This document shows, piece by piece, positions 1-18,094 of a stretch of DNA of 64,000 nucleotides. A program made the position numbers and the translations under genes. The stretch is from Escherichia coli (GTDB lineage Bacteria; Pseudomonadota; Gammaproteobacteria; Enterobacterales; Enterobacteriaceae): assembly GCF_003991155.1 (NCBI RefSeq), contig NZ_CP031293.1; one strand, given 5' to 3'. Each line of letters opens with the position of its first letter. Positions within the stretch are counted from its first letter, which is position 1. The notes under the pieces were generated by a model. It was not told the DNA's origin. It saw only the letters and a list, made by a program, of their open reading frames with translations, and did not search any database.

Positions 1-153
1 CAGTAAATCGATAAACACATCTTCACTATCCAGCAGGAACGGGTTCATGCCGGCTTTAATAATTGCTTCTTCACGATAAGCGCGAGTGGTACGTTTTACT
101 GGCTCAATAACACGAATGCGGAACGGTTCAGGGAGATGTTTAAAGTTTTCCAT
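1..153 (-). CDS. tnaA: tryptophanase, N-terminal 51 codons only (gene runs off the window start)
   Basis: Minus-strand translation from ATG at 151-153 gives [51 protein letters not shown], the TnaA N-terminus with one substitution versus the K-12 protein as recalled; an in-frame ATG also lies 15 nt upstream. Confidence 0.85.
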
Positions 154-359
154 TACGTAATCCTTCATTTATTTTAAGGACAGAAAATTACGGAGATATT
201 GCAAATGCAATACCCGATAGTTCGCTAAAATATTTGCAAGAGACATCATTTATAAAAATGAATGATAGTCTTTACAAAAGCAGAAATAAGATATGCCAAA
301 CAGACAGGTTAGATGGAATTCAATCTATTTGACAAAAATGATGGTTACAGAAAGGCAAG

Positions 360-434
360 TTAAGGGTGGTGTTCAACAATCTTGTTGTCGATATTGAACC
401 ATTTTGAGGTCACACATATATGTAAGATATTCAT
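360..434 (-). CDS. tnaC: tna operon leader peptide (24 aa, MNILHICVTSKWFNIDNKIVEHHP)
   Basis: Own translation of minus strand; W12, D16 and terminal P24 are conserved; positions 21 and 23 differ from K-12 TnaC as recalled (DHRP); ~206 nt spacer to tnaA start. Confidence 0.8.
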   Translation of the reverse strand: MNILHICVTSKWFNIDNKIVEHHP

Positions 435-509
435 AATGCACTTATCCTCGAAAGACACGAGGTTACAGTATAATACTCAAGAAATTTGTCTATCCTGAAA
501 TTGTTTAAA

Positions 510-525
510 TGTGAATCGAATCACA
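510..525 (-). promoter_or_regulatory. CRP site TGTGAATCGAATCACA upstream of tnaC, with candidate -10 (TATACT/TATTAT) near 463-478
   Basis: Perfect TGTGA-N6-TCACA palindrome about 75-90 nt upstream of the tnaC ATG; the tna operon is known to be CRP-dependent. Confidence 0.6.
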
Positions 526-1488
526 GTTGGTTATTAGTGATATAAAATGACAATGATTTTGCATCATTAAAAATATTTATCAATTACGTTGATAAAACTA
601 TTACATGCAGGTGTTAATAAATGGTGATAAAAATGGTAAATGACAGAGATGTAATGTTGAAGATGATTCCTTGATGAGAATTATGTTCTACGGAAGTGGT
701 ACATCAACTTTTTGGGAAGGTATATAAATAAAGCAGAATAGATCACGTTTGGCACACATCTGATTACTCATGTAATTAACTAATTTCAGCACGGTTTTTC
801 TTGCTTTTTTAGAGTAATTAATATACCGATGCCCAAGATGAATATCATAAGAAATACTATCAAAATAATGTCTGGAATGAAATATTATACAGATGAATGA
901 TTGCGGTTACCTGATGATTTAAATAATGAATATGTGATTTGCTTGTTATATAAGAAAATTTAAATATTGCCGATAGTGTATTGAATAGTGCCTGCTTAAC
1001 GGGGTCCCCTGTTAAGTTGTCAAGCATGTTTATGAGACTGCTGGGGGATAAAAAGTCCCGGCACACATCCTGCTAACAGGACATCACTGCACTGTCTGAG
1101 CGATAAACGCTTGGTTGTGTCGTATTCCACGGCTCATTTTACGTGTGTAGTACGTTTGGGTATTGGTTTTCGGAGAGCAGCAAAGGCTGACAGGAACAAT
1201 GCCCGTTTGATGAGTTTATTGTCTCGTCTTGGCGGATGTTCGCCACATATTGATGAACCGTAACGCTAGGTAAAAAGGGGAAGCAAGACCCCACTGTTTC
1301 ACTTCAAAAGCCTTGCTTATGTAGAGTGATGAGATGGAGTGCCAGAAGGCCTGGAGTGGCAGAATAACGACTGCGGCATGCGTACCGGGAGCGATCATGG
1401 TTTGTTGTACCAGTGCCTGAGTGATGTCTGCCGCGGGGCGTTTTTCAAGATGAGGCTCAAGCTTGCAGGGCTGCCAGCTTCTTTTCAC

Positions 1489-2883
1489 TTAGCGAAGCCA
1501 GTTTTTCCGGCCTACGGCTACTCCCCGTAAGGCGTTCTCTGCGATGTTGTTGTCGATTTCCACCCAGCCATTGCTGCAGTACACGTTCAGGCCATCCCAC
1601 TGTTTCAGCAGGTATGCGAACGCTTTTGCCGTATCTGAGTGACGCGACAGTGTTTTCATCTGTTGCTGTATCCAGTCATACAGTGACTGCATCAGTGGCG
1701 CGGCTCTGGCTTTTCTTGCCGCCAGACGCTGTTCTGCTGAACAGCCCCGGACCTCTGCCTCGATGGCATACAGTTCACCGATACGCTGCAGGGCTTCCGT
1801 GGTGATGTAGGTGGGCGCTCTTGCATGCACATCGTGGATTTTTCTCCGGGCATGAGCCATACACGCGGCTTCCGTTATTCTGCCGGATTCGTATAACGCC
1901 CGGTAACCACCGTAAGCATCGGCCTGAAGCACACCGCTGTAACCGGCCAGGTGATTTTGTGGATGGATACCTTTCCGGTCCGGACTGTACGCGAACCAGA
2001 CCGCCGGGGGCATCTGTGAACCGGCGTTACGGTCATCACGGACGTAGACCCACAGCCGGGCTGTCCGGGTTTTACCGCTGCCCGGCTCCTGGACCGGGAC
2101 GGGGATATCATCAGCATGGACTTTACCGGGCATCAGCACATACTGGCGCAGGACGTCATACAGCGGCTCCAGCAGTTCAGCAACAGCACCTGTCCAGCGC
2201 CCCAGTGTGGCACGGCTCAGCTCCACTCCCTGACGACGGTATATTTCTGACTGGCGGTATAACGGCAGATGGTCTGCATATTTCCCGGTGACAACATGGG
2301 CCAGAAGCCCCGCTCCGGCATAACTGCGTGCAATGGGTTTTGAAGGTACTGGTGCCTGCACGATATGGTCGCACCGGCAACAGGCCTGTTTCGGACGTTG
2401 TGTTTCGATAACCTTAAAGGCGCTGCTGATAAGCTCCAGTTGCTCTGACACATCACATCCCAGAGAACTGAGTTCACCACCACAGGCAGGACAGCATTCC
2501 TCTTCCGGCCGGATAACCCGGGTTTCACGGGGAAGTGAGGCCGGTAACGGTTTACGGGCTGAAGACTGGCGCAGGGCGGATGGCAGTACCGGGTCATATT
2601 GCTCACCCAGCGTTTCCGCCATTTCTTCCTGAAGTGCGCTGATTCGCTCCTGTGCTTCCTGTATCTGCCGTTCGGTTTTTGCACGAAGTTTTTCTGAGCT
2701 TTTACCGAACTGCATACGTTGCAGTTTCGCAACCAGCGCCTTCAGCCGGTTGATTTCGGAAGCATAAGCCGCCACCCGCTGTGAGAGCAGGCGGTTGTAT
2801 TCAGCCATCTGGCGGATGGTGTCCTGTTGCGTCTGCAACAGTGCCCGCAGGCGGGCGTTCTCATGAGCAAGTGAGGTGTCCAT
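1489..2883 (-). CDS. IS66-family transposase TnpC (orfC), C-terminus apparently disrupted
   Basis: 464-aa ORF with zinc-finger-like CxxC pairs and DDE-region conservation; ends at KNWLR where family members continue; a 90-aa ORF (1216..1488) lies immediately downstream in the same orientation. Confidence 0.75.
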
Positions 2884-2902
2884 ATCCTCACTTTACAACG
2901 GG

Positions 2903-3250
2903 TTATATGCGGATTCCAGCGCGTTCCGTTCGTTTCGGGTGCTTCCAGTTGATACCTTCAAGAAGCATGGATAACTGAGCCGGAGTAAGGTGCACCTTGC
3001 CGTCACGGGTGACTGGCCAGACGAAGCGGCCCCGCTCCAGGCGTTTGGTGAAGAGGCACAGTCCGTCACTGTCAGCCCACAACACTTTTATCTGGTCACC
3101 CCGGCGTCCGCGGAAGATGAACAGGTGTCCGGAGAACGGGTCATCCTTCAGGACGTTCTGAACTTTTGATGCCAGGCCGTTAAAGCCATTTCGCATATCG
3201 GTGATACCTGCAACCAGCCAGATACGCGAACCTGCAGGGAGAGATATCAT
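2903..3250 (-). CDS. IS66-family TnpB (orfB)
   Basis: 115-aa ORF MISLPAGSRIWLVAGITDMRNGFNGLA..., the characteristic IS66 Orf2 N-terminus. Confidence 0.8.
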   Translation of the reverse strand: MISLPAGSRIWLVAGITDMRNGFNGLASKVQNVLKDDPFSGHLFIFRGRRGDQIKVLWADSDGLCLFTKRLERGRFVWPVTRDGKVHLTPAQLSMLLEGINWKHPKRTERAGIRI

Positions 3251-3927
3251 CAGTGGCTGCTCCCTTTTATTTCGCGGATAAGTGTCTGTAATAACGCCGG
3301 CGTCAGTTTACCTTTAAGCCTGAGAGTTCCGGCCGGCAGAACCAGCTCACAACACAGACTGTCGGACGGTGTATTTATCTGCTCTGGTTCCTGTGCGGGG
3401 GCCGGGATTTTATTATCCGGCTCCGGCGTTAACGTCACGGGAAGCAGTGCCGGCATATTTTTTCCGGAAGGCAGCAGGCCACCTTTCCGGTATTGATGGC
3501 GCCAGTTGAAGAGCAGGTTATCGTTGATTCCGTTTTCCCGGGCGATCTGCGCCACACAGGCTCCGGGCTGCAGTGACTGCTCCACTAAGGCGATTTTAAA
3601 CTCATAAGGGAAGTTGGGCCGCCGGGGACGTTTTTTTACCACGGGGGCTTCGGATATAACGGTGCTTTCAGGACGTACGACTGGTACCGTGGAAAATTGT
3701 CCGTAAAGGCAGGCATCAAGTTCCTGCTCCGACATGCCTGCGGGCAAAGGCCACGAAAGGCCAGCTCTCCGAAAGCGCACGAACATACTACAAACTGTTG
3801 ATTTTGGTACACCCAGGCGACGCCCGGCCACAACCCGGGGTAAATGTTCTTCAAAGTGAAGACGTAAAGCTTCAGTGATCCAGGTCCGGTGTTTCATACG
3901 ATAGTGTCCATTAAAAATGATGGACAT
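3250..3927 (-). CDS. chimeric ORF: IS21-family IstA-like N-terminus (HTH + LSWPLPAGMSEQELDACLY) fused to IS66-family TnpA (orfA)
   Basis: C-terminal ~130 aa (PNFPYEFKIALVEQSLQPGACVAQIARENGINDNLLFNWR) is IS66 TnpA-like; N-terminal ~95 aa resembles IS21 IstA N-termini. Confidence 0.55.
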   Translation of the reverse strand: MSIIFNGHYRMKHRTWITEALRLHFEEHLPRVVAGRRLGVPKSTVCSMFVRFRRAGLSWPLPAGMSEQELDACLYGQFSTVPVVRPESTVISEAPVVKKRPRRPNFPYEFKIALVEQSLQPGACVAQIARENGINDNLLFNWRHQYRKGGLLPSGKNMPALLPVTLTPEPDNKIPAPAQEPEQINTPSDSLCCELVLPAGTLRLKGKLTPALLQTLIREIKGSSH

Positions 3928-3976
3928 TATTTTTGTAGAGCCGGAGGAAACAGACCAGACGGTTTAAATGAGCCGG

Positions 3977-4180
3977 TTACTTTCCCTCGCGCCATTGTTG
4001 TCGCCATTTGAACAACAGATTGGCGTTAATGCCATTTTCAAGAGCAAGTTTTGAGATGGATATCCCGGGTTCACAGGAGGCAGCAACGAGCTGCTGTTTA
4101 AATTCGGGAGGATAATTAGGGCAGCCTTTTCGCCTGCCGGGAGTCACATTTTTCTGCATATCTGACACTTTGGTTCCCAC
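3977..4180 (-). pseudogene. second IS66-family tnpA-like fragment (67 aa)
   Basis: PNYPPEFKQQLVAASCEPGISISKLALENGINANLLFKWRQQW is paralogous to the TnpA segment at 3250..3650; far shorter than intact TnpA. Confidence 0.5.
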
Positions 4181-4836
4181 TACTTATTTGGTGGACACCA
4201 CTTTGTCTAATTCGTCAGATTCTGACCAGACGGTTCAGGCTGTACGCTTACGTAGAACGCAGGTTCGTTTCGGTTCAGGATCGCGACAGTGCCCCCTCAC
4301 CTTCAGCTACAGTTCCCATAGAATTTTTTTCAGGTCAGTAATACTGGCTGCTGTTGTTGTCAGGATTTGATAGCTCATAAGCCCCGTTTGTCTTATTGGT
4401 ATAAGAGCATCTTTAAAAGCACTCTTAAAAGTACTCGTGTTGAAAAAACAGCCAGAACAAATGAAGTATGGCTCTTTCCGACAACTCTCTAAAACGTTCT
4501 GTAACACATTCTGAGCGTTTTTACGTCAGTTAGGCACGCCGCTCAGTGCTTCTGAGCGGCCTTGTTGCCGCGATCTGTTGTCCTGATCTTGATAAATGAA
4601 CATCAATACGGCGTTCCGTCAGTGTTTACAATAACTCCCAATTCATAACTACTTTTAACACATTTGTGTGATTCCCCCTTTCTGCTGAAAATATAGTTAT
4701 TTCCAATATAATCAATGAGTTTTATTAATTTGTTGATTTTTTTTTTCATGTTTTTTTTGTGATAATTATCATTTGAATGTGAATGTTGCTCCTGAATAAT
4801 GTTTATCAAAGTTGTCTGGTACGAGGGAGAAATTTC

Positions 4837-6099
4837 ATGGCTATCATCATGGGGATCATCGCTGACGATTTTACTGGCGCGACTGATATTGCCTGCTTTA
4901 TGGCAGAGAATGGTTTTCGGGTTGCGCTGTTGCCCGGTTTGCATGCACTCACGCAGTCATGGGATGAAGAGGCTGATGCAATAGTCATTTCACTGAAAAG
5001 TCGTTCATTACCCGCGAATCAGGCAATTGAGCAGACTTTGCTAAGTTATCATTGGTTGCGTGACTGTGCGGGGGCGCAGCAGATCTATTTCAAATATTGC
5101 TCAACATTTGATTCCACTGCAGATGGCAATATCGGCCCGGTCAGCGATGCACTGATGAAGGTGATGGGCACACCTTATGTCGTGCATTGTCCCGCTTTGC
5201 CCCAAAATGGCCGAACAGTTATCCATGGACATCTTTTTGTTAACGGTATACCCCTTAACGAATCCGGCATGGAAAAACACCCCCTGAATCCAATGACCGA
5301 CACTAACCTGCTGCGCGTACTGGCTGCACAAACCCCCAATAGAGTTGGTAATCTTGATCTGAGGACAGTTCAACAGGGCGAGCAAGCCATCACCACCGCA
5401 CTTTCCCGTTGTCAGGCTGAAGGGAAGCAACACATTATTGTCGATACATTAACTGAAAATGATCTGCAAAGCCTGGCAAATGTATTACGCCATACACCTT
5501 TACTGGCTGGGGGATCCGGACTGGGTGGGGCGTTAGCCGCTTTTTTACAGCAACATCCTTATACGCCAGCCTCCGCGTTTCCCAATCCTGCCAGAACGGT
5601 AATCTTCTCCGGAAGTTGTTCAGTGATGAGTAATCGACAGGTGGATGCTTATAAATCGCATGCAGCCACGCAGTTGCTTGATGTTGCTCGTTGTCTGGAC
5701 GATGGCAATAGATATATCGATCAATTACTTGAATGGACAATTGCGCACATCAATGATCCGCTTGCTCCGTTGATTTACGCCACTCAACCTGCGGATGTGT
5801 TGAAATCTATACAGCAAACCTGGGGTGAACACGCGGCAAGTAAAGCCATTGAACAAACTTTTGCGCAGCTTAGCCAAAAATTGCAGGTCGCGGGTGTCAA
5901 CACTTTTATTGTTGCTGGGGGAGAAACTTCCGGGACTGTAGTGGAAGCGCTAAATGTGAAACGGCTAACAGTGGGGAGCACTATTACGCCGGGCGTACCA
6001 TGGGTTTTTTCGGCAGAACCGCCCCTGGCACTGGCGCTGAAATCTGGCAATTTTGGGGAGCCTGATTTTTTCATTAAGGCTCAGGAGCATGGATTATGA
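4837..6099 (+). CDS. four-carbon acid-sugar kinase family protein (DUF1537; OtnK/YgbK-like 3-oxo-tetronate kinase homolog)
   Basis: N-terminal IADDFTGATD motif and overall length (420 aa) typical of DUF1537 kinases; RBS GAGGGAG upstream; stop overlaps next start. Confidence 0.75.
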   Translation: MAIIMGIIADDFTGATDIACFMAENGFRVALLPGLHALTQSWDEEADAIVISLKSRSLPANQAIEQTLLSYHWLRDCAGAQQIYFKYCSTFDSTADGNIGPVSDALMKVMGTPYVVHCPALPQNGRTVIHGHLFVNGIPLNESGMEKHPLNPMTDTNLLRVLAAQTPNRVGNLDLRTVQQGEQAITTALSRCQAEGKQHIIVDTLTENDLQSLANVLRHTPLLAGGSGLGGALAAFLQQHPYTPASAFPNPARTVIFSGSCSVMSNRQVDAYKSHAATQLLDVARCLDDGNRYIDQLLEWTIAHINDPLAPLIYATQPADVLKSIQQTWGEHAASKAIEQTFAQLSQKLQVAGVNTFIVAGGETSGTVVEALNVKRLTVGSTITPGVPWVFSAEPPLALALKSGNFGEPDFFIKAQEHGL

Positions 6100-6734
6100 G
6101 TGAACTCATCGAACAAAAATTACGTGAACAACTCGTCTATTACGGGCGTTCGCTCTTTATGCGCGGTTTCAGTAGTGGCGGTTCCGGCAATATCAGCGTC
6201 AAACTGGCTGAAGACCGTTTTTTGGTCACGCCGACCAATTCCTGTCTTGGCGAGTTAGATAGTGAAAGAGTGAGTCTTATCGATATTCATGGCAACCATA
6301 TCAGTGGTGATAAGCCGTCAAAAGAGGTGCCTATGCATCTTGCCTGGTATCGACATCGTCCGAACTGTGGAGCGGTGGTACATCTGCACTCGCCATGGCT
6401 GACGGCACTTTCGTGTTTACCTTGCACAACACCAGAGAATTGCTTACCGCCGCTCACTCCCTATTACGTGATGCGTGTGGGGAAATTACCATTATTGCCT
6501 TATTTCAAACCAGGACATGAGGATATCGCTACGGCATTAAGCCATATAGCGGCCGACTCTACCGCAGCTCTGTTGGCGAATCATGGCCCCGTTGTCAGCG
6601 GAAGAACATTGCGCGAAGCGGTATTTAATGCCGAAGAGCTGGAAGACAGTGCCCGTATCTGGCTGACCTTAAAACCACTTGGCTATGTTCCTCTTTCGGC
6701 AAAAGACATCGCTGAACTGGAACAGGCCAGATGA
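6096..6734 (+). CDS. class II aldolase/adducin-family protein (OtnC/YgbL-like decarboxylase/aldolase)
   Basis: 212 aa, SGGSGNISVK and HLHSPW metal-binding-type motifs; ATGA overlap with upstream kinase gene. Confidence 0.75.
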   Translation: MSELIEQKLREQLVYYGRSLFMRGFSSGGSGNISVKLAEDRFLVTPTNSCLGELDSERVSLIDIHGNHISGDKPSKEVPMHLAWYRHRPNCGAVVHLHSPWLTALSCLPCTTPENCLPPLTPYYVMRVGKLPLLPYFKPGHEDIATALSHIAADSTAALLANHGPVVSGRTLREAVFNAEELEDSARIWLTLKPLGYVPLSAKDIAELEQAR

Positions 6735-6749
6735 TAACGAGGTGAGAGG

Positions 6750-7556
6750 ATGATACCCGAGCAAAGGCGAGACTTTATTTACCGCTATGTCCATGAGAAA
6801 AACGTTGCTTCATTTAATGAACTGGCTGAGTTGATGAGCGTTTCGCATATGACAGTGCGTCGTGATATTCAATTACTGGAAGAAGAAGGCAAAGTTATTA
6901 CCATAAATGGCGGCGTTAAGCTGAACAACCAACTTAAATTGGAGTTACCGTGGCGAGAAAAAGCTGAACTGCATCATGATATTAAGCGTGACATGGGGCA
7001 GCTTGCTGCGATGTTGATCGAACCCGGGCAGACACTCTATTTAGATGCCGGAACCTCATTATTTGAGGTCGCAAAAGCAATCGTTGCCAGCCAGTGCTTT
7101 AATCTCACTATCGTGACAAATGATTTCTCTATCAGCCATTACCTGATGGATATGCAACATATCACGCTTTACCACACCGGGGGATTGGTAGATCAACGCA
7201 ATCGTTCTTGTTTGGGGAAAAGTGCAGCTGATTTTCTGCGCACGATTAATATCGATGTTGCATTTCTTAGCTCCTCTTCATGGGATACACAAAGAGGAAT
7301 GTCAACACCAAATGAAGGTAAAGCTACAGTGAAAGAGGCGGCGCTTACGGTCTCCCGTCGCCGCGTATTAGTGTGTGATAGCAGTAAATTCGGTAAATAC
7401 GGAATGTTCCATATATGCGAGCTCAGCCAATTGACCGATATCATTTCAGATAACCAGTTGCCTTTATCGGCGCAGGAAAGCATTACACAGCTGGGCGTGA
7501 AATTACATCTGGTTAATAGCCGGGAGGGAACGCAGCATGTTGAAGCTGGCGGCTAA
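6750..7556 (+). CDS. DeoR-family transcriptional regulator
   Basis: N-terminal HTH (FNELAELMSVSHMTVRRDIQLLEEEGKV) and C-terminal sugar-phosphate-binding-like domain. Confidence 0.8.
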   Translation: MIPEQRRDFIYRYVHEKNVASFNELAELMSVSHMTVRRDIQLLEEEGKVITINGGVKLNNQLKLELPWREKAELHHDIKRDMGQLAAMLIEPGQTLYLDAGTSLFEVAKAIVASQCFNLTIVTNDFSISHYLMDMQHITLYHTGGLVDQRNRSCLGKSAADFLRTINIDVAFLSSSSWDTQRGMSTPNEGKATVKEAALTVSRRRVLVCDSSKFGKYGMFHICELSQLTDIISDNQLPLSAQESITQLGVKLHLVNSREGTQHVEAGG

Positions 7557-8313
7557 TCTCGACTGGTTGTTCACAGAACTGCCGATGTCTGCACGGTTTC
7601 ATGCAGCCAGACGGGAGGGGTTTCGTGCTGTTGAAGGAATGTTTTTCTGTCAGCATTCTCTGGATATGCTGAGAATTGCGCAGCAAGAATCGGGAATGAG
7701 CGTGGTGCTGATGAATGCTCCGGCAGGTGACTGGCTACGAGGTGAGCGTGGCCTGGCTGCACTTCCTGGCCGCGATGATGAATACCTGAACAGTTTGCTC
7801 ATTGCCCGCCGATATGCAGGGACGCTGGGATGCAGGCAGGTTCATGTTATGGCGGGCCTTCGGGATCACTCTGTGACAGAAGATGAACAACTGGAGTTAC
7901 TGGTTAATCGCTTGTGCATAGCCTGCGATGTGCTGGCGGAAAAAGATATTACAGTATTAATCGAACCCCTGAATTCTGAAGATATGCCTGGCTATATTAT
8001 TAATAGCCTTCCTCGAGCAAAAGATATTATCCGGCGGGTTTCTCACCAAAATATTGGTTTGCAGTTTGATATTTATCATTGCCAGAAAATTCATGGTAAT
8101 GTCACCCAAAATATAGATAAATATTTATCAATAGTTAAGCATTTTCAGATTGCCTCTGTGCCTGGTCGCCACGAACCAGGTTCTGGTGAGCTAAATGATA
8201 CGTGGATATTAAATTTTATTAATCAAAAAAACTTCCAGGGCTGGATTGGCTGTGAGTATAAACCTTCCACACTGACAACCGAGTCATTACGCTGGATGAA
8301 ACCATATTTATAA
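7537..8313 (+). CDS. Hyi/OtnI-like TIM-barrel isomerase (hydroxypyruvate / 2-oxo-tetronate isomerase family)
   Basis: 258 aa; strong similarity to E. coli Hyi as recalled (AGDW..GERG, LIEPLN, GW(I/V)GCEYKP, LRWM.PY). Confidence 0.8.
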   Translation: MLKLAANLDWLFTELPMSARFHAARREGFRAVEGMFFCQHSLDMLRIAQQESGMSVVLMNAPAGDWLRGERGLAALPGRDDEYLNSLLIARRYAGTLGCRQVHVMAGLRDHSVTEDEQLELLVNRLCIACDVLAEKDITVLIEPLNSEDMPGYIINSLPRAKDIIRRVSHQNIGLQFDIYHCQKIHGNVTQNIDKYLSIVKHFQIASVPGRHEPGSGELNDTWILNFINQKNFQGWIGCEYKPSTLTTESLRWMKPYL

Positions 8314-8334
8314 AATCTTTTTCTGGAGGAAAAT

Positions 8335-9147
8335 ATGTCGGATACCGTCATAATTTCGTTGGCACCTGTGGCCGCAGACTGCACCAGAGTCATACCCGAA
8401 GAATTGGCGCAGGAAATTTTGGCTTGCGTTGAATATGGAGCAGCAATTGTTCATTTACACGTTCGTGATAAGCAAGGCAAGTTAACGCCAGATACAACCG
8501 ATTTCCAGTCAACCATTGATCTCGTCAGACATCAATCAGACTTAATTATTCAGGCTTCTACGGGCGGAGTCTCTGCCATGTCAATAGCCGAGCGTTGCGC
8601 GCCTCTGGACTGCCCTGGCGTTGAAATGGCGTCGCTGAATGTAGGGTCGGTGAACCTTGGTGATGCCGTCTACGCTAATCCAACACCGGATGTCGAATAT
8701 TGTTCACAGCAAATTACCGCGCGTAGTATTGTTCCTGAATTTGAAGTGTTTGAAATTGGAATGGTTAATAATATTTTAACCCTCAATGAAAAGATAAAAT
8801 TCAGAAACCCCATGTTATTTAATATTGTACTTGGTCATAGAGGAAGTTCTCCGGCGACAATAGATGCATTAATTGCGATGCGCAGTATGATCCCGCGAGA
8901 TGCATTATGGGGTATTACTCACTTTGGCAGAAAGAATTTTGATGTTATTGCTGCTGCGGTAGCTATGGGAGCTAGCGAGGTCAGAATTGGTTTTGAAGAT
9001 AGTTATTATTTAAGTGCAGAGGAGATGGCGGAACAAAATTATCAGCAAGTTAAAAAACTCGCCAGACTTATTCGTAGTATGGATAAACAAGTGGCCTCAC
9101 CGGAAATTGCCCGACGGATATTAAATATCCCAATCCGGCAGCAATGA
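8335..9147 (+). CDS. DUF849 / BKACE-family beta-keto acid cleavage enzyme
   Basis: 270 aa with HLHVRD motif characteristic of 3-keto-5-aminohexanoate cleavage enzyme family; good RBS (GGAGGAAAA). Confidence 0.7.
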   Translation: MSDTVIISLAPVAADCTRVIPEELAQEILACVEYGAAIVHLHVRDKQGKLTPDTTDFQSTIDLVRHQSDLIIQASTGGVSAMSIAERCAPLDCPGVEMASLNVGSVNLGDAVYANPTPDVEYCSQQITARSIVPEFEVFEIGMVNNILTLNEKIKFRNPMLFNIVLGHRGSSPATIDALIAMRSMIPRDALWGITHFGRKNFDVIAAAVAMGASEVRIGFEDSYYLSAEEMAEQNYQQVKKLARLIRSMDKQVASPEIARRILNIPIRQQ

Positions 9148-9168
9148 CGACAGACAGGACATTTTACT

Positions 9169-10479
9169 ATGACTATAACAACCCTAATACAAAAAGCAGG
9201 ACTTACAATCTGTATAGCTGGCGGTGTACTCGCGGCAACAGGCGGGTTGATGCAATCCGCTGTGCTCTGGCAACCTGGATTGGTGATGCTTACTGCAGGC
9301 TTTGCCCTCGGTGCTGGTTACTGGCCGATACTTCGAAGTTATCAATTCACGTTATGGATTATCGCAGGTTTCGTGGCTGCGATGACCTGGTCGATGGATT
9401 TGATTGTCTGGGGCGGGTTTAACATTACTCACAAATGGATCGTGTTTTTAGTCATTCAGGCAACGATGTTCAGTATGGGTACCAAACTGACGATTCAGGA
9501 TTTTATCGATGTTGCCAAAATGCCATGGGCGGTGTTTATTGGCACCTTCTGCCACTTTGTGATTATGCCGTTGCTGGGGCTAACCATTACGCTGTTATTT
9601 GATTTTCCGCCAGAAGTTGCGGTGGGGATCCTGCTCATAGGTGCCTGCCCTAGCGGTTTATCATCAACTGTTATGGTTTATATCGCTAACGCGAACCTCG
9701 CGCTGGCGGTATCAATCGCCGCAGTTTCTACGCTGGCAGCAACGGTTATGACGCCGTTGTGGGTAAATTTGCTGGCTGGCTCCATGATTGACATCCAACT
9801 TACCGCAATGGTTATGGACGTGGTGAAAATTGTCCTTATACCAATTGGTGCAGCAATTTTGCATGACTACCTGAAAACGTACGCTGGAGTTCGAGGTCGA
9901 CGAACCGTGCAGCTTCTCGCCGGGATCTGCGCCCTGTGGCTAATTTACATGAGCTCTGGTGGTTGGGACTATCTCTTTGACAACGCCAGTGCAGACGTAC
10001 AAATGTATGCCGTGGTACTGAACTTTGTCACGGGTGGCATTGTATGGGCGTTGTTCTATAACTGGCTGTACAGTCGCGTGGAAGGCATTCAAAAGATTAT
10101 GCCAACCATCTCTATGATTGGGATCATCTTCTTTACCACCACCGCTGCGGCAGCTGGTCGTGATAACCTGTTGCAGGTTGGTTTCCTGCTTTGTTTCGCC
10201 ATGTTGTTGCATAACCTTGGCGGTTTCCTGATTGGCTATCTGATGAGTCGCTGGATATTCCGCATGGACGAACAATCGTCCCGTACCGTAGCCTTTGAAG
10301 TGGGATTGCAAAACGGAGGTATGGCGTCAGGTCTGGCAGCGGCAATGGGCAAACTGGCTACAGTTGGCCTTGCCTCTGCAGTCATGACACCTCTCGGCAA
10401 TGTGAGTGGTTCGCTGTTGGCAAACTACTGGCGCAAAAAAGACGCTCGTAAAGCACAGACTGCGAATAAAGACAAATAG
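9169..10479 (+). CDS. BASS-family (bile acid:sodium symporter / SBF-like) transporter with N-terminal extension
   Basis: Highly hydrophobic 436-aa ORF, GACPSGLSSTVMVYIANANLALAVS signature region; start codon uncertain. Confidence 0.65.
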   Translation: MTITTLIQKAGLTICIAGGVLAATGGLMQSAVLWQPGLVMLTAGFALGAGYWPILRSYQFTLWIIAGFVAAMTWSMDLIVWGGFNITHKWIVFLVIQATMFSMGTKLTIQDFIDVAKMPWAVFIGTFCHFVIMPLLGLTITLLFDFPPEVAVGILLIGACPSGLSSTVMVYIANANLALAVSIAAVSTLAATVMTPLWVNLLAGSMIDIQLTAMVMDVVKIVLIPIGAAILHDYLKTYAGVRGRRTVQLLAGICALWLIYMSSGGWDYLFDNASADVQMYAVVLNFVTGGIVWALFYNWLYSRVEGIQKIMPTISMIGIIFFTTTAAAAGRDNLLQVGFLLCFAMLLHNLGGFLIGYLMSRWIFRMDEQSSRTVAFEVGLQNGGMASGLAAAMGKLATVGLASAVMTPLGNVSGSLLANYWRKKDARKAQTANKDK

Positions 10480-10514
10480 TCTGCCTGTTGTAACCTTTCA
10501 AAAGGAAACTCAAT

Positions 10515-10934
10515 ATGACGACATTGACCCTGAAACAAGCATTGCTTGCAGTAGAGTATGCGCTTGATCTTGCAGTGCAACAATATGCTGGCCGTCCTTT
10601 AAGTGTGGCAGTATGCGATGTTAATGGTGAATTGCTGAGCTTTGCCCGCATGGATAGAGCCAAACTGTTAACTATTGAATTAACGCAGCGTAAAGCACGA
10701 ACCAGTAGTCGTCTGGGCTGTACGACAGCAGCATTCTTACAGCGTCTACAAAAAGAGCAACTTGATATCAGCTATTTTGGAGATCCCCGGTTTACCGCAT
10801 TACCAGGAGGGATCCCTATTCTGGTTAAAGGAAAATGCATTGGTGCTGTTGCTGTGGGGGGATTATCCGCACGAGAAGATCATGATGCGGCACAGGCTGT
10901 CGCAGATAAACTGCTTGAGGAGATGACCAAATGA
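10515..10934 (+). CDS. GlcG/DUF336 (HbpS-like) protein
   Basis: 139 aa, typical DUF336 length and GAVAVGG glycine-rich motif. Confidence 0.6.
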   Translation: MTTLTLKQALLAVEYALDLAVQQYAGRPLSVAVCDVNGELLSFARMDRAKLLTIELTQRKARTSSRLGCTTAAFLQRLQKEQLDISYFGDPRFTALPGGIPILVKGKCIGAVAVGGLSAREDHDAAQAVADKLLEEMTK

Positions 10935-11581
10935 AAAAAATAGCCATGCTTCACACCAGTTCAGCCACGCTTGCGGTGATGCAACAACTGATAGGCGATA
11001 TCATGCCTGAGGCTGAAGTGATGCATCTGGTTGAGGAGTCTATGATTAAGCAGGTGATGAAAGCGGGCGGTGTTACGCCAGATATCGCCGCACGGATCGC
11101 TGATTACATACGGATCGCTGAAAAAGCCGACTGCGATATTTTCATTACCGCTTGTTCATCAATTGGTACTGCTGTCGAACAGTGTCAATTTATGACTTCA
11201 GTACAACTGGCACGGATTGACTGTGCGATGGTGGATGAAGCAATCAACAAAGGGGAACACATTGCTGTGCTGGCAACGGTGGCCACAACGCTGAAACCGA
11301 CGCTTGATTTTGTCCGGCGAAAAGTTCAGGAAAGTGGAAAACAGCGGATTATTACACCTGTTTTAATGGAAGAAGCCTTCCATGCGTTATTGAATGGTGA
11401 TATGGGAACGCATGACCGCATTGTGAGTGAAGGATTACAAAAGGCCTTTGGGCAGGCAGATGTTATTATGTTAGCGCAGGCATCGATGGCACGGGTGCTG
11501 CAAAATATGCCTGAGCCTCCGGTTCCGGTATTAACATCGCCAGAAAGCGGTATTCGCTGGTTGAAAACATTCGCGAGTTAA
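10931..11581 (+). CDS. AroM-like / Asp-Glu-hydantoin racemase superfamily protein
   Basis: 216 aa; architecture resembles E. coli AroM as recalled; ATGA overlap with upstream gene; family assignment tentative. Confidence 0.45.
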   Translation: MKKIAMLHTSSATLAVMQQLIGDIMPEAEVMHLVEESMIKQVMKAGGVTPDIAARIADYIRIAEKADCDIFITACSSIGTAVEQCQFMTSVQLARIDCAMVDEAINKGEHIAVLATVATTLKPTLDFVRRKVQESGKQRIITPVLMEEAFHALLNGDMGTHDRIVSEGLQKAFGQADVIMLAQASMARVLQNMPEPPVPVLTSPESGIRWLKTFAS

Positions 11582-11684
11582 GTCAGGTATAGTTTCTATA
11601 TTAAAGACGTTTACACATAATGGTGTACAGGCCCATTCAGAAACGGAACTGGGAATTTATTAACGGATAATCCGGAAACGTATT

Positions 11685-11716
11685 AAATGGCAGAAGGTAA
11701 CTACTTTCTGCCATTT
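11685..11716 (+). terminator. perfect 11-bp inverted repeat (AAATGGCAGAA / TTCTGCCATTT, 10-nt loop) ~105 nt downstream of the operon
   Basis: Seen directly; no clear T-tract follows, so terminator function is uncertain. Confidence 0.35.
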
Positions 11717-12101
11717 CACAGACAGGATGTACATATTAATCGGCCATGATGGTTGACATAAAAAATGCATCGGCAGTGATGTGGCAAGTTTTTCCCGGAC
11801 AATGTTTTTCTTCATCCCACTTGCAGAAAATATATAATATTATATTTTATATAACATTTTCTAACTCATTGAATACACTTGCAAATCTTCTCATTCTTAC
11901 TTAGAAATATTATTAATTTTAACGTTCTTTGTTGAATGTTTGTTTGGTTACAGCCATCTAATTTTTTAAATGCACAGTATCTGTGGATAACTTTGCGTAA
12001 ACACTGGGGACAGAGCTCGTTGAACCAGAGAAAGCACGCATGAAAACAAAATACTCATTCTTTAACCATTCTGTATAAGATCAGATGTCAGATCTGCTCA
12101 A

Positions 12102-12157
12102 TTCCGCTTTCCCGGTCACTGACTCGCTACGCTCGATCGTTCGGTTGCGGCGAGCGG
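12102..12157. other. ~56-bp segment resembling ColE1/pMB1-type plasmid backbone sequence
   Basis: TTCCGCTTTCCCGGTCACTGACTCGCTACGCTCGATCGTTCGGTTGCGGCGAGCGG versus pBR322/pUC backbone as recalled; roughly 50 of 56 positions match. Confidence 0.4.
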
Positions 12158-12455
12158 AGTCTCCTTTCTCAAAATCAGGCTTCGTGCATCTGGTCACAAA
12201 CCCGTATATCAATCATCATTGATGAGAAATTATCTTTATGAGGGCGTTTTTTTGGTTTCAGTTTTGCACGGAACCAGGAGATTTTTGGGAGTTGTTTTAT
12301 GTATGTTGTAAATAAAATTTTAATATTGACATCTACTGTACGTGCATAGAGTACGCCGGTGACCAACGTCAGCATTCCACTGTTCCAGTAACTAATTAAC
12401 GTAAGTGAAGTTATCGAGGAAGCAATACTGGATGGAGAAGTCGTCCTTGAGGTAT

Positions 12456-12737
12456 TCACTTTCCTTTCGTTCTGCCCATTAGTGGACAGCTAACTAGTGG
12501 CAGGACATCGGAGTACAGCACCTTCCCGTTGTTATTTATCAGCACGGCAGCTTTCTGGTTATTGACGAGCACAGTTTTCACGCCGCCGCCAAAGTTGTGG
12601 AAGACTCGCACCAGTGACTCATGGGTATGTTCAGCATCCTGTATGGGGCAGCAAAGAGATAGAAGCGACGTGAGAACCCCCTGCGTATTAGTCGCGAAGT
12701 TAATGCAGCATCGTTGTCTGACCAGTACCCCAGTCAT
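12456..12737 (-). pseudogene. IS21-family transposase IstA fragment (central DDE region, truncated)
   Basis: Translation ...QDAEHTHESLVRVFHNFGGGVKTVLVNNQKAAVLINNNGKV...GRTKGK closely parallels IS21 IstA and stops inside the TKGK(V)E motif; flanking frames 12738..13143 look like further degenerate remains. Confidence 0.6.
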
Positions 12738-13219
12738 GCTGGAGCTGGTAATCCGGCTGAGTTTTGAAGCGAACCGTTTTCTTCGATTTCCGTCTGGGAA
12801 GTAATCAGACTCAGCACGGACAAAAATTGCAGCGCCCGGATGGCACGGGTAATGGTCAGATTACCGGATGCGGATTAGGTGCCGCGTAGTGAAGCGCGCC
12901 GGATTCAGAGTCGCTAGTATGGTCATACAGCGAAGGAAAGCCGCCAATTTTTGTGCCGGACGTGGAATATACAGCGAATGCTGATGTAAAAGGCGCTCGT
13001 AATATTTTAGCTGCGGGACATACTGTGCTTGCCAGGGAAGGGATGGTGCAGTCAGACCACCCGTTGAAGCGAAATGAACCTGAACCATACGACAACCTGA
13101 AAGTAGCAGGAATCCACGCCCTGAAGGACGTGGAGGAAGTCAAATCGATGGTAGGTTGTAGGTTTATGGCAACATCTGCTTCATTAGATACATGTCGATA
13201 TACAGAACATATATCACAT

Positions 13220-13903
13220 TTATGAATTTTCTTTTATCCTGCTATTTTGGGGTTTATTGTGAAAGTAACTTTCAAGAACAGGCAGATAGTACCAGGATTC
13301 AGGATGTTTTTTCAGGAATTCATTTAAAAATGATTGCATTGTTAAATATAAATCTTTGTTATTTCCTTTATGTATAAAATCATAAATCCACACGTAATTA
13401 CTGTAATTAGAATCAAAGTATGATGCAATAAAATACGCATTAGCACCTGCGCGTCTTACAATATATTCCCAACCACCGTGCAACCATGCTTTCTTATTCA
13501 GTAGACAAGCTTCTCTTACAGAACCATAGTTTTCGCTACTATACACTGAGGGTATATCTGGTAATATAATCAAATTAGCTCCGTTTTTTACAAGCTTAAT
13601 CATGGCCTTTATTTCTGTAATGCCATTTTTTTCGAAAACAGTAATCTGATGCCCAAGTCCAGAAAGTGAATGTATTAATTCCAACTCATTGAGACCATTT
13701 ACAGAACTTCTATAAAAAATAAAATGTGAGTTAGATTTATATGAAAGTAGAATTTTATGAATGGCTGTCCAGTATTCACCAGAATGTAAAACTACAAACA
13801 CAGAATTATTAAGTGTTTTATGTAATGCATCCAAAAAACAGTCTTCATATATAAATTTTGTACGGTGTGCATACTCATGAAGGGTATTCATAGACACAAT
13901 CAT
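13220..13903 (-). CDS. hypothetical AT-rich protein with LpxL/LpxM-like (lipid A late acyltransferase family) features, lacking the usual N-terminal region
   Basis: 227 aa; H-S-G-E-Y-W and ILPDIP motifs resemble HxGxWE and LPDQD motifs of LpxL-family enzymes; markedly AT-rich. Confidence 0.35.
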   Translation of the reverse strand: MIVSMNTLHEYAHRTKFIYEDCFLDALHKTLNNSVFVVLHSGEYWTAIHKILLSYKSNSHFIFYRSSVNGLNELELIHSLSGLGHQITVFEKNGITEIKAMIKLVKNGANLIILPDIPSVYSSENYGSVREACLLNKKAWLHGGWEYIVRRAGANAYFIASYFDSNYSNYVWIYDFIHKGNNKDLYLTMQSFLNEFLKKHPESWYYLPVLESYFHNKPQNSRIKENS

Positions 13904-13983
13904 TTTAGCCCTATTACTGACAATAATGATAATTGATATTCTGAGCGTATCGAAAATAAGTCCGAATTATCAGAAGGTTTATT

Positions 13984-14756
13984 ATGAAAATACTCATTGC
14001 AGGGGCAACCGGAAGTATTGGTCTTCATGTCGTGAATACCGCTATTGAAATGGGTCATCAGCCCGTGGCGCTGGTCAGAAATAAACGCAAAGTAAAATCT
14101 CTTCCTCGTGGAACAGATGTTTTTTACGGCGATGTTTCAATGCCGGAAACACTCACCGAATTGCCGAAAGATATTGATGCCATCATCTTCACTCTCGGTT
14201 CTGATGGCCAGGGGCGTATTGGTGCCAGAGCGATCGATTACGGAGGAGTGCGTAATATTTTGCGAATATTCAGGGATACACCTGTTCGTATCAGCTAATG
14301 ACCACGATTGGCGTGACTGAGCGGCTCAGCACTTGGAATCAACGCACTGAGGTTCATGACAGGAAAAGACGTGCCGAGCGTCTGGTCAGGGCCAGCGGTC
14401 ATCCCTATATTATCGTCCGGCCCGGCTGGTTTGATTACAACAATGATGATGAACACAGGATCGTTATGCTTCAGGGGGATCGTCGCCATGCAGGAACACC
14501 GGAAGATGGTGTGATATCCCGGGAGCAAATCGCCCAGGTTCTGGTCAGTGCCCTGACCAACGACGAGGCAAAAAATAAAACGTTCGAGCTGGTGGCTGAA
14601 CGAGGTGAAGCACCACAGGATCTTACCCCACTGTTTGCAGAACTGCAGACTGATGATGCACAAAAAAATGATGGGGTTCTGGACATAGACAATATGCAGC
14701 TGAGAGAAGAACCGGAGTGCATTATTAACGAGCTGAACCTGTATTCAAAAAATTAA
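13984..14756 (+). pseudogene. NAD(P)H-binding NmrA/atypical-SDR-family oxidoreductase split by a frameshift at ~14296
   Basis: First ORF (104 aa) starts with Rossmann motif MKILIAGATGSIG; second ORF (152 aa) continues the family in another frame; junction AGCTAATGACC. Confidence 0.6.
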
Positions 14757-14897
14757 ACAATCTACAACCCTGACAATTTTGTCATATAGCGGTCAGCCTC
14801 ATGACAGTTTAAGTCTGTATATTTACATACACAAACGGGGATAGTTCCCTTGATACGAATCCAGTTTTAAACATAGATTTTAAAAGAGGTATTAAAT

Positions 14898-15149
14898 ATG
14901 AAAGCATTACTTATTACTACATTGGTCATGGGGTTTATTTCAGTGAATGCCGCATCTGCAGCTCAGGAAATTAACCATGCAGATGGGAAAGAAAAGATAG
15001 GTGTAGTCTCAGCCAGCAATGCCTATACGCTTGATGAATTATCGAATACGCTTTCTCGTAAGGCTGATGAACAAGGAGCAACATCGTTCAAAATTCTGTC
15101 AACCACGGGGAATAACCGGCTGCACGGGGTTGCTGAAATCTATAAGTAA
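14898..15149 (+). CDS. BhsA/YdgH/McbA-family (DUF1471) small secreted stress protein
   Basis: 83 aa with signal peptide and C-terminal ...LHGVAEIYK closely paralleling E. coli BhsA. Confidence 0.75.
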   Translation: MKALLITTLVMGFISVNAASAAQEINHADGKEKIGVVSASNAYTLDELSNTLSRKADEQGATSFKILSTTGNNRLHGVAEIYK

Positions 15150-15205
15150 ATCATTAGTATCCTGAGCAGGATGTGTCTTAACCCTCTTATAGCGAGCGTC
15201 GATTT

Positions 15206-15541
15206 ATGTTTAGAACAGAAGACATCATCGATGAGATAACCCAATGGATTGATTCAAATTTACATAAGCCGCTGAAGATAGAGGATGTTGCTGCGCGGGC
15301 AGGATACTCGAGGTGGCATCTTCAGCGGATTTTTGTGCAGGTGAGAGAAATTAGCCTTGGGAAGTACATAAGAGATACGAAACTTAGACTTGCAGCAAAA
15401 GATCTTATCGCGACTAATGAGCCAGTGATGGTTATCGCCTTTAAATATGGATTCGATTCACAACAAACTTTTACTCGGATTTTCTTTAAAAAATATAAAT
15501 TGCCACCATTGAAATATAGGGTAATGACTCCAACTTATTGA
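15206..15541 (+). CDS. MarA/SoxS/Rob-type small AraC-family regulator, 3' end replaced by IS1 sequence
   Basis: Two HTH regions (SRWHLQRIF... / ...QQTFTRIF) like SoxS; IS1 left end begins at 15520 inside the ORF so the last ~7 codons and the stop are IS1-derived. Confidence 0.7.
15511..15519. repeat. IS1 target-site duplication, left copy (GAAATATAG)
   Basis: Identical 9-mer directly flanks both IS1 ends. Confidence 0.8.
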
Positions 15542-16038
15542 TAGTGTTTTATGTTCAGATAATGCCCGATGACTTTGTCATGCAGCTCCACCGATTTTGA
15601 AAACGACAGCGACTTCCGTCCCAGCCGTGCCAGGTGCTGCCTCAGATTCAGGTTATGCCGCTCAATTCGCTGCGTATATCGCTTGCTGATTACGTGCAGC
15701 TTTCCCTTCAGGCGGGATTCATACAGCGGCCAGCCATCCGTCATCCATATCACCACGTCAAAGGGTGACAGCAGGCTCATAAGACGCCCCAGCGTCGCCA
15801 TAGTGCGTTCACCGAATACGTGCGCAACAACCGTCTTCCGGAGCCTGTCATACGCGTAAAACAGCCAGCGCTGGCGCGATTTAGCCCCGACGTATCCCCA
15901 CTGTTCGTCCATTTCCGCGCAGACGATGACGTCACTGCCCGGCTGTATGCGCGAGGTTACCGACTGCGGCCTGAGTTTTTTAAATGGCGGAAAATCGTGT
16001 TGAGGCCAACGCCCATAATGCGGGCGGTTGCCCGGCAT
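15535..16038 (-). CDS. insB: IS1 InsB (expressed as InsAB' by frameshift)
   Basis: 167-aa ORF matching IS1 InsB. Confidence 0.85.
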
Positions 16039-16232
16039 CCAACGCCATTCATGGCCATATCAATGATTTTCTGGTGCGTACCGGGTTGAGAAGCGGTGTA
16101 AGTGAACTGCAGTTGCCATGTTTTACGGCAATGAGAGCAGAGATAGCGCTGATGTCCGGCGGTGCTTTTGCCGTTACGCACCACTCCGTCAGTAGCTGAA
16201 CAGGAGGGACAGCTGATAGAAACAGAAGCCAC
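15957..16232 (-). CDS. insA: IS1 InsA
   Basis: [42 protein letters not shown]... Confidence 0.9.
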
Positions 16233-16287
16233 TGGAGCACCTCAAAAACACCATCATACACTAAATCAGTAAGTTGGCAGCATCACC

Positions 16288-16296
16288 GAAATATAG
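16288..16296. repeat. IS1 target-site duplication, right copy (GAAATATAG)
   Basis: Identical 9-mer directly flanks both IS1 ends. Confidence 0.8.
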
Positions 16297-16522
16297 AAAC
16301 GCGGAAAGGAGAAAAAAACTTCACCAGCCCATGTCTTAAGTTCTGTCAGTATGGCTACAGCCTGTTTGCTGAGTGGCACAAGGTGTGGTGTTCGAATCTT
16401 GGTTCCCCAATGAGAGTTCAGGCGGTGTGGGCAAATAAAAAAGAAAACATAAATAAAACCATCCGACCGTTGGTGGGGCTGGATGGTTATTCATTATTTC
16501 TATGTCACTGAACTTTCATTCA

Positions 16523-17704
16523 TCAGATCTGCTCAGAAAGTGAATCAATGTAGTCAGCATACCACTGCATCATTTCACGGCGACCATCCAGATACTGGGC
16601 ATGATTATAGGTACCTCTGATAGCGTTTTTATCCATATGAGCTAACTGCATTTCAATCCAGGCAGAATTAAAGCCCTGTTCGTGCAGAATTGTACTCATG
16701 GTGTGTCTGAAACCGTGCCCTGTGAGTCTTCCCTTATATCCTAGTAATTCAATGACTTGGTTTATGCTTTCCTTACTAATTGGTTTGCGAGGATCGTTCC
16801 TACCGATAAAGACCAGAGGATGATGTTTTGAGATTGGTTCAAGTTGCTTAAATAGCGCAATGACCTGCTCAGAGAGCGGCACAATATGAGGTCGCTTCAT
16901 CTTCATTACTTCTGCCGGGATCTCCCATAATTTTGTCTCAAAATCGATATCCTCCCAGCGTGCGAAACGCAATTCTTGAGTTCGTACACCAGTTAGCATA
17001 ATGATTTGAGTGGCTGTCTTAGTGATAATACTTCCGGTATAACCCGCCAGATCATTGAGGAAGTGGGGAAGTTCATTAGCAGTAAGAAAGGGAAAATGTA
17101 CTTTTTTCGGTGTAGCTAAAGCACTGGCAAGATCGGGAGCAGGGTTGTAGTTAGCCCGACCAGTAACAATTGCATAGCGGAACACCTCTCCACAGCGCTG
17201 GCGGACCTTACGCATTTTCTCCAGAGCTCCACGTTTTTCCATTTTACGCAATGCTTCCAGTAACTCCATTGGTTTGATTTCAGCAATAGGGCGTTTGCCA
17301 ATATAGGGAAAAATATCTTTTTCAAAGGTATCAATGATTTCATCACGATAGCGTAATGACCACCGATCGGCTTTTGACTGATGCCATTCTCGAGCAACGG
17401 CCTCAAATGTGTTTTTCAAACTCATTTGCAGCGCGATTTTTTCTTCTTTTTTTGTCTCACCCGGATCGCATCCTGCAGCGAGGATTTTCCTAGCTTCACT
17501 GCGTTTTTCGCGAGCGTCGGCTAGAGTTACATCGGGGTATACGCCAATAGAAAGCATCTTTTCTTTGCCAGCAAAGCGGTACTTCATACGCCAATATTTA
17601 GAACCATTAGTGTTAATGAGTAGATACATACCGCCACCATCAGACAGCTTATAGGGCTTTTCTTTTGGTTTTGCGGTTTTCACTTTAATATCAGTTAACG
17701 CCAT
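16523..17704 (-). CDS. P4-type (CP4-like) tyrosine integrase
   Basis: 393 aa, C-terminal HGFRHT...Y catalytic signature; lies beside the 3' end of selC in the same orientation. Confidence 0.85.
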   Translation of the reverse strand: MALTDIKVKTAKPKEKPYKLSDGGGMYLLINTNGSKYWRMKYRFAGKEKMLSIGVYPDVTLADAREKRSEARKILAAGCDPGETKKEEKIALQMSLKNTFEAVAREWHQSKADRWSLRYRDEIIDTFEKDIFPYIGKRPIAEIKPMELLEALRKMEKRGALEKMRKVRQRCGEVFRYAIVTGRANYNPAPDLASALATPKKVHFPFLTANELPHFLNDLAGYTGSIITKTATQIIMLTGVRTQELRFARWEDIDFETKLWEIPAEVMKMKRPHIVPLSEQVIALFKQLEPISKHHPLVFIGRNDPRKPISKESINQVIELLGYKGRLTGHGFRHTMSTILHEQGFNSAWIEMQLAHMDKNAIRGTYNHAQYLDGRREMMQWYADYIDSLSEQI

Positions 17705-17999: not shown

Positions 18000-18094
18000 T
18001 GGCGGAAGATCACAGGAGTCGAACCTGCCCGGGACCGCTGGCGGCCCCAACTGGATTTGAAGTCCAGCCGCCTCACCGGAGACGACGATCTTCC
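18000..18094 (-). tRNA. selC: tRNA-Sec (selenocysteine)
   Basis: Reverse complement reads GGAAGATCGTCGTCTCCGGTGAGGCGGCTGGACTTCAAATCCAGTTGGGGCCGCCAGCGGTCCCGGGCAGGTTCGACTCCTGTGATCTTCCGCCA (95 nt, CCA end), matching E. coli selC as recalled. Confidence 0.9.

Follow-up and report, generated by a model that had tools for sequence, protein, structure and literature searches.

At selC in Escherichia coli, a short gene for a MarA/SoxS-like regulator, the first cargo gene beside the integrase of an island at this tRNA-Sec locus, runs into a copy of the insertion sequence IS1. The question that this locus raises is whether a mobile element has clipped the 3′ end of a native gene and, if so, how old and how widespread the event is and what it means for the regulator and for the neighbouring integrase. 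The stretch of DNA analysed here, 64,000 nucleotides long and referred to below as the window, had been read in a first-pass annotation as carrying an IS1 insertion that ends the regulator gene prematurely. That reading held on every direct test, and the insertion of IS1 in the 3′ end of the regulator gene is confirmed. The features discussed below are collected in Table 1.

Table 1. Positions of the regulator, the IS1 element and the neighbouring features in the window.
Feature	Position	Strand	Basis or remark
DUF1471 / BhsA-like small secreted protein gene	14898-15149	+	Pfam YdgH_BhsA-like, 1.5e-18; NCBIfam BhsA, 80.9 bits (cut-off 90)
Chimeric regulator ORF, 111 aa	15206-15541	+	Residues 1-105 native; residues 106-111 (VMTPTY) and TGA from IRR
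Target-site duplication GAAATATAG, left copy, 9 bp	15511-15519		Single at the empty site in L001
IS1 right inverted repeat (IRR)	15520-15542	+	GGTAATGACTCCAACTTATTGAT; supplies the new tail codons and the regulator stop
insB′ reading frame, DDE transposase domain	15535-16038	-	Pfam DDE_Tnp_IS1, 2.3e-78
A6C slippery motif TTAAAAAACTC	15975-15981	-	IS1 coordinate 307, in the insA/insB′ overlap; -1 frameshift gives the InsAB′ transposase
insA, 91 aa	15957-16232	-	ORF list; Pfam Zn_ribbon_InsA and HTH_Tnp_IS1
IS1 left inverted repeat (IRL)	16265-16287	-	GGTGATGCTGCCAACTTACTGAT; contains the inward-reading insA promoter-like site
Target-site duplication GAAATATAG, right copy, 9 bp	16288-16296		Sequence read and script
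Orphaned regulator 3′ end	16297-16339	+	Third base of codon 105, codons 106-118 (NAERRKKLHQPMS), TAA; identical to L001 12721-12763
Hairpin between the convergent genes	16457-16488		U-run follows on the - strand
P4-type tyrosine integrase of the selC island	16523-17704	-	Pfam Arm-DNA-bind_3, Phage_int_M, Phage_integrase
tRNA-Sec (selC), island attachment site	18000-18094	-	ARAGORN; Rfam RF01852, 83.8 bits

The element is a complete IS1 of the IS1B type that occupies positions 15520-16287 on the minus strand and runs in the opposite direction to the window. The two copies of GAAATATAG are separated by exactly 768 bp, on which a reading of the sequence and a script check agree. The terminal repeats have the length (~23 bp) and the imperfect character (GGTRATG...CCAACTTA) of the IS1 family, with IRR and IRL matching at 18 of 23 positions, and the IS1 end pattern was found nowhere else in the 64-kb window (0 expected in shuffles). 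Because insA abuts the end at 16287, that end is IRL by IS1 convention and the end at 15520 is IRR. The left terminus of IS1 had been placed at 15520, inside the regulator ORF; the position is correct, but the end is the right one of an inverted element. Between the repeats lie the insA and insB′ frames, the A6C site for the -1 frameshift and the DDE transposase domain, and identical IS1 copies carry the label ‘programmed frameshift’ in PGAP annotation. Over all 768 bp the element is 100% identical to copies carrying the PGAP label ‘IS1-like element IS1B family’, and annotated copies at this level of identity number in the thousands. The promoter-like site in IRL (16280 to 16253, minus strand) reads inward to insA, and transcription of insA and insB is directed towards the regulator. 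Of 5,426 complete E. coli genomes, 4,970 contain IS1, and the median number of places per genome is 11. In its length, repeats, insA/insB′ organization, A6C site, 9-bp duplication and AT-rich target the present copy agrees with the known IS1 family and is ordinary in every respect, the insertion site alone being specific.

As had been proposed, GAAATATAG stands as a direct 9-bp repeat on both flanks of the element, for which a match by chance at two fixed positions has a probability of ~4e-6. The duplicated target is 78% A+T, in a window of 48% G+C overall, and AT-rich targets are a known preference of IS1. Joining the flanks restores, again as proposed, an open reading frame, in this case of 118 amino acids ending in ...PLKYRNAERRKKLHQPMS and identical to WP_061092946.1 of strain 2016C-3878. 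The comparison with uninterrupted alleles in relatives, which had been put forward as a check, showed that 21 complete E. coli genomes have the site unoccupied, with one GAAATATAG each. In these, a 3-kb query aligned in two pieces with 100% identical flanks and the matched span was 2224 bp, that is, 3001-768-9. The empty site of strain 2016C-3878 reads ...CCATTGAAATATAGAAACGCGG... and contains one GAAATATAG only; between this genome and the window there are 0 mismatches over 1-15519 and 16288-43881 (~43 kb of flanks). Both the chromosome and a plasmid of strain 2016C-3878 carry 100%-identical IS1 copies, and a donor copy was therefore at hand in the lineage. We conclude with high confidence that an active-looking IS1 transposed once into codon 105/106 of a horizontally acquired RamA-like gene in the selC island. 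In the proposed course of events, an IS1 copy would have moved a single time into the AT-rich 9-bp target GAAATATAG at codon 105/106, where a staggered cut would have given rise to the perfect 9-bp duplication with the element left complete, and the insertion would then have been inherited in a circulating sublineage.

The distribution of the fused allele was assessed at the level of both DNA and protein. The junction was found in 0 of 5,426 RefSeq complete E. coli genomes with a 3-kb query and a 241-bp junction query, and the exact 38-base junction pattern was absent from GTDB species representatives and JGI metagenome contigs. A private one-off event was accordingly considered, and it was dropped when exact-protein look-ups yielded 32 contigs with the fusion and ~40 that terminate at the junction. 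The 32 public contigs encoding the exact 111-residue fusion (GenBank AZR86989.1 and others) include the 5.01-Mb chromosome CP134912.1 and a 4.90-Mb contig. An identical left junction is present in all 8 of the 8 fetched loci that encode the exact 111-residue protein, and the right junction in both long contigs. A 104-residue ‘partial’ product, corresponding to residues 1-104, occurs on a further set of 40 contigs; two of the three such loci shown lie on contigs that break off exactly at the counterpart of window position 15519, and contig ends of this kind are the usual signature of short-read assembly breaking at an insertion sequence. The intact 118-residue protein is found on 372 contigs, such that the fused or junction-ended allele makes up 72 of 444 contigs, or ~16% of the public sightings (roughly one in six). 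The identical site and orientation point to a single origin of the insertion. Because the flanks carry no substitutions the insertion is young in evolutionary terms, yet it is an inherited polymorphism of a circulating sublineage. The earlier description of the insertion as recent is therefore borne out on the evolutionary scale, with 0 substitutions over ~43 kb relative to an empty-site genome, but the intact duplication on which it had been based is by itself weak evidence of age and the event is not private to one strain.

Two explanations that dispense with such an insertion were weighed. IS1 is a multicopy element (a median of 11 places per genome) at which short-read assemblies break, and a copy could have been misplaced during repeat resolution; a perfect 9-bp duplication, however, is the footprint of real transposition and not of misjoining. 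Two independent multi-megabase contigs also contain both junctions, six further assemblies contain the left one, and draft contigs terminate exactly at 15519, all of which makes an assembly artefact extremely improbable. It is just as difficult to sustain the converse scenario, in which IS1 was ancestral at this site and the intact 118-residue alleles arose by its precise excision. Although precise excision between 9-bp repeats is mechanistically possible according to established knowledge of insertion sequences, it is rare, and the intact allele is in the majority, being found on 372 contigs and in 21 of 21 complete genomes with a 100%-identical locus. In addition, diverged homologues in other genera run past R105 with related tails and no IS1. 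We assign this scenario a negligible probability, and the single insertion of IS1 into an intact gene is taken as the basis for what follows.

The native regulator is a protein of 118 residues (WP_061092946.1) that is annotated only as ‘helix-turn-helix domain-containing protein’. It comprises the two-HTH AraC DNA-binding domain alone (Pfam HTH_AraC, residues 15-50; HTH_18, residues 29-105) and, as in the MarA/SoxS/Rob/RamA group, this small single-domain protein has no sensor or dimerisation domain. Regulators of this group bind marbox DNA as monomers and activate acrAB, tolC and micF. Its best PDB matches are RamA, MarA, Rob-N and SoxS (E values of 1e-37 to 1e-24), and its AlphaFold2 model contains seven helices with a mean pLDDT of 92. 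RamA, the AcrAB-TolC activator of Salmonella and Klebsiella (PDB 7BEF), is the closest by sequence (E 3.4e-37; 56% identity over 104 aligned residues), and the two proteins share a single domain with two HTH motifs and have about equal length. The regulator differs from RamA in that it follows a DUF1471 gene in the selC island without ramR or romA as neighbour: the ramR-ramA(-romA) context is absent at the locus, which has the DUF1471 gene upstream and the selC-island integrase downstream. The NCBIfam ramA_TF model gives 153.1 bits for the native protein and 151.9 bits for the fusion, both below the cut-off of 180 for a RamA equivalog, and the scores of the SoxS and MarA models lie well below their respective cut-offs. 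Since the score is under the equivalog cut-off and there is no ramR neighbour, the regulator is, as judged by sequence and gene context, a RamA-like paralogue and not RamA itself. SoxS and MarA of E. coli belong to the same fold family and share the conserved domain end PPxxYR, with MarA 47.5% identical over 101 aligned residues; however, they are encoded by core chromosomal genes with dedicated sensors (SoxR and MarR), whereas the regulator is island cargo.

Homologues of the regulator at 70-90% identity occur in Klebsiella, Enterobacter, Citrobacter, Raoultella, Scandinavium and Kosakonia. The pair formed by a DUF1471 (BhsA-like) gene and a RamA-like gene is itself widespread at 70-90% identity in Klebsiella, Enterobacter, Citrobacter, Raoultella and Kosakonia, but it is rare in E. 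coli, where 29 of 5,426 complete genomes have it. The regulator of this pair appears to be an unnamed and uncharacterised RamA paralogue, and one diverged E. coli copy is annotated by PGAP as ‘RamA’. A literature search returned nothing specific on this island and no described link between RamA and a DUF1471 gene. In the window the DUF1471 gene ends 56 bp upstream of the regulator and is preceded by a promoter-like site (14850-14879, plus strand), and the two genes are probably co-transcribed.

The insertion exchanges the C-terminal tail of the regulator. The junction falls within codon 105, where AGG takes the place of AGA; this change is synonymous and retains R105, and beyond this codon the six residues VMTPTY take the place of the thirteen native residues NAERRKKLHQPMS, shortening the protein from 118 to 111 residues with a TGA stop at 15539-15541, inside IRR. 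Seven IS1-encoded residues had been counted previously; there are six, the seventh being the straddling codon, which still specifies Arg. Conservation among 28 aligned homologues ends at Y104-R105, beyond which the tails range from 3 to 34 residues, and one homologue (P0036) terminates four residues past R105. The SoxS chain has 107 residues, of which residues 4-105 align to query residues 5-106, and its natural end lies about three residues beyond Y104-R105, about where IS1 cuts the regulator. All residues conserved across MarA, SoxS, Rob and RamA are retained in the fusion, including both HTH motifs and the PPxKYR domain end. What the fusion lacks is a short basic patch after R105 (N-A/T-E-K/R-R/I-K-K) that close homologues mostly keep. 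In the AlphaFold2 model of the native protein the last helix comprises residues 101-113 (mean pLDDT of 96 for residues 101-110); the insertion interrupts this predicted helix beyond residue 105, with a proline following four residues past the cut. In RamA, MarA and SoxS the Lon degron lies at the N-terminus (PMC3922155), and the tail swap is therefore not expected to affect control by Lon. With family conservation ending at Y104-R105 and the natural end of SoxS lying about three residues further on, the chimeric protein probably still folds and binds DNA and would be a hypomorph at worst, a reading that we favour with some reservation.

The larger effect may be on the mRNA. The insertion parts the regulator ORF from its 3′ UTR and probable terminator. 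The hairpin between the convergent genes has a predicted folding energy of -23.1 kcal/mol (z = -4.8) as minus-strand RNA and -18.0 kcal/mol (z = -2.2) as plus-strand RNA. It is likely to be the terminator of the integrase on the minus strand and, in its weaker plus-strand form, is likely to have terminated the regulator transcript before the insertion moved it 777 bp away. Transcripts of the regulator would enter IS1 antisense to insB and face convergent insA transcription. IS1 is classically polar in both orientations.

The integrase gene on the other side of the element has been left as it was. It is 100% identical to that of the empty-site sister strain 2016C-3878, its sequence being unaltered by the insertion. 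The integrase and regulator genes converge, with 235 bp between the integrase stop codon and IS1 (IRL), and the integrase promoter is on the far side, towards selC. A promoter scan found no outward promoter-like site at either end of IS1. An outward hybrid promoter formed by an IS1 end was also considered and was rejected, as the TTGGCA hexamer in IRL is without a -10-like hexamer at 16-18 bp spacing in the flank, and the element's own promoter points away from the integrase. The suggestion that the outward-reading IS1 end may affect the integrase thus finds no support in the arrangement of the genes, which are convergent with a terminator hairpin between them and no outward promoter-like site, and we infer that the integrase is not affected by the insertion.

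Two other views of the fused allele deserve consideration, one in which the gene has lost its function and one in which it has been altered to advantage. In the former, the cut in helix 7, the lost basic tail and the lost native 3′ end would destabilise the protein or its mRNA and the gene would be a young pseudogene in an island decaying through insertion sequences. This is less likely than a protein that still folds and binds DNA, and we entertain it tentatively: the predicted helix does span residues 101-113, the basic patch after R105 is semi-conserved in close homologues, and the product is labelled ‘partial’ in GenBank. The neighbouring SDR oxidoreductase gene is moreover already frameshifted, and a second IS1 in the upstream gene of assembly GCA_028736835.1 would fit a module that was already dispensable. 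The conserved core argues in the opposite direction, since every family-wide conserved position is kept, the HMM scores are essentially unchanged, the SoxS chain of just 107 residues aligns to query residue 106 and P0036 ends four residues after R105. Nor does the regulator carry a further mutation at any of the 8 insertion-bearing loci that were fetched.

In the adaptive view, the altered tail or transcript would change the level or stability of the regulator and lead to more efflux or stress tolerance, or IS1 would alter expression of the integrase and stability of the island; either would account for the noticeable frequency of the allele. The relatives RamA, MarA and SoxS drive AcrAB-TolC expression (PMC3922155, PMC7216687), and the allele accounts for ~16% of public sightings (72 of 444 contigs). 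Clonal inheritance in a sampled lineage would, however, give such a frequency, the known degron is N-terminal, and an effect on the integrase is countered by the lack of an outward promoter-like site in the scan and by a convergent gene with its own terminator. We consider an adaptive fusion allele quite improbable. The related notion that the fused allele is a selected gain- or change-of-function variant of the island-borne RamA paralogue, or an incipient IS1 composite transposon, is likewise given very little weight. The reading retained here remains that of a chimeric protein which would still fold and bind DNA. Insertions of IS elements that shorten bacterial genes at the 3′ end, or fuse to them there, form a general class in which the IS repeat supplies a stop codon and a few residues and the polymorphism is lineage-specific, and the present case is no different in kind.

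Other features of the island and of the window were noted alongside the regulator. A tyrosine integrase adjoins tRNA-Sec and is followed by accessory cargo that is absent from most strains, as is typical of a tRNA-associated island. The SDR/NAD(P)H-binding oxidoreductase gene at 13984-14756 (plus strand) is split by a frameshift into ORFs at 13984-14298 and 14298-14756, and because the sister strain 2016C-3878 is annotated with the same frameshift, this lesion predates the IS1 event. The far part of the island (window 1-2950; L006) contains IS66 (ISCro1) and IS110 transposase remnants adjoining a copy of tnaC-tnaA (tryptophanase). For the same sister strain, PGAP annotates a remnant of 32 codons (‘hypothetical protein, incomplete’), equivalent to 16320-16415 on the minus strand, that overlaps the 3′ end of the regulator. 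A T-loop-like sequence within it, GGTGTTCGAATC, at 16387-16398 was examined as a possible tRNA remnant and was rejected, as ARAGORN and Rfam found no tRNA or RNA family. At ~43873-43881, between yicC and dinD, strain 2016C-3878 carries an integrase-bearing element of ~17.3 kb, absent from the window, that encodes an antirepressor, a DUF5906 protein, a phage DNA ejection protein and a PerC-family regulator; the window is empty at this site, where the two BLAST pieces overlap by 9 bases.

Further IS1 insertions were seen near the regulator or at comparable positions in other islands. In assembly GCA_028736835.1 (JAQZDF010000001.1, 2033-2800; L008), one of those that bear the insertion, a second IS1 lies inside the upstream DUF1471 gene at the equivalent of window positions ~15006-15021. 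This copy, oriented the same way, belongs to a different isoform (98.7% identical) and is flanked by a 9-bp duplication of its own, GTCTCAGCC. The regulator of this assembly is bracketed by two direct IS1 copies in an arrangement resembling a composite transposon and, if this is what it is, could move as a composite IS1 transposon. In unrelated selC islands (L002, L003 and L004, from E. coli O104:H4 C227-11, ET979 and I3) IS1 is found just past the 3′ end of the integrase gene at other sites and with other duplications, and ET979 has a tandem pair of IS1 copies. Copies of IS1 beside selC integrases in other strains (H22-H30), whose matches extended by a few bases into the left flank, were considered as instances of the same insertion and were rejected because the islands are different. 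At the ET979 junction both the site and the duplication (GAATATTGC) differ, and the flank match arises from AT-rich targets resembling one another by chance. The AT-rich DNA on the downstream side of these integrase genes may be a favoured landing zone for IS1.

The insertion adds nothing new in kind, since it consists of an ordinary IS1 with an ordinary 9-bp duplication, and the allele is already in public annotation as a ‘partial’ protein. It also illustrates how, in short-read assemblies, genes of this kind come to be reported as ‘partial’ where a contig ends. With identical flanks and a unique insertion site, the junction makes a clean lineage marker for strain typing, and beyond this it is of little importance. 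For the biology of the regulator, it represents a natural C-terminal truncation allele of an unstudied RamA-like protein that is rarely carried by E. coli, and the pair of 118- and 111-residue forms offers a ready-made test of whether the tail past the conserved KYR motif matters.
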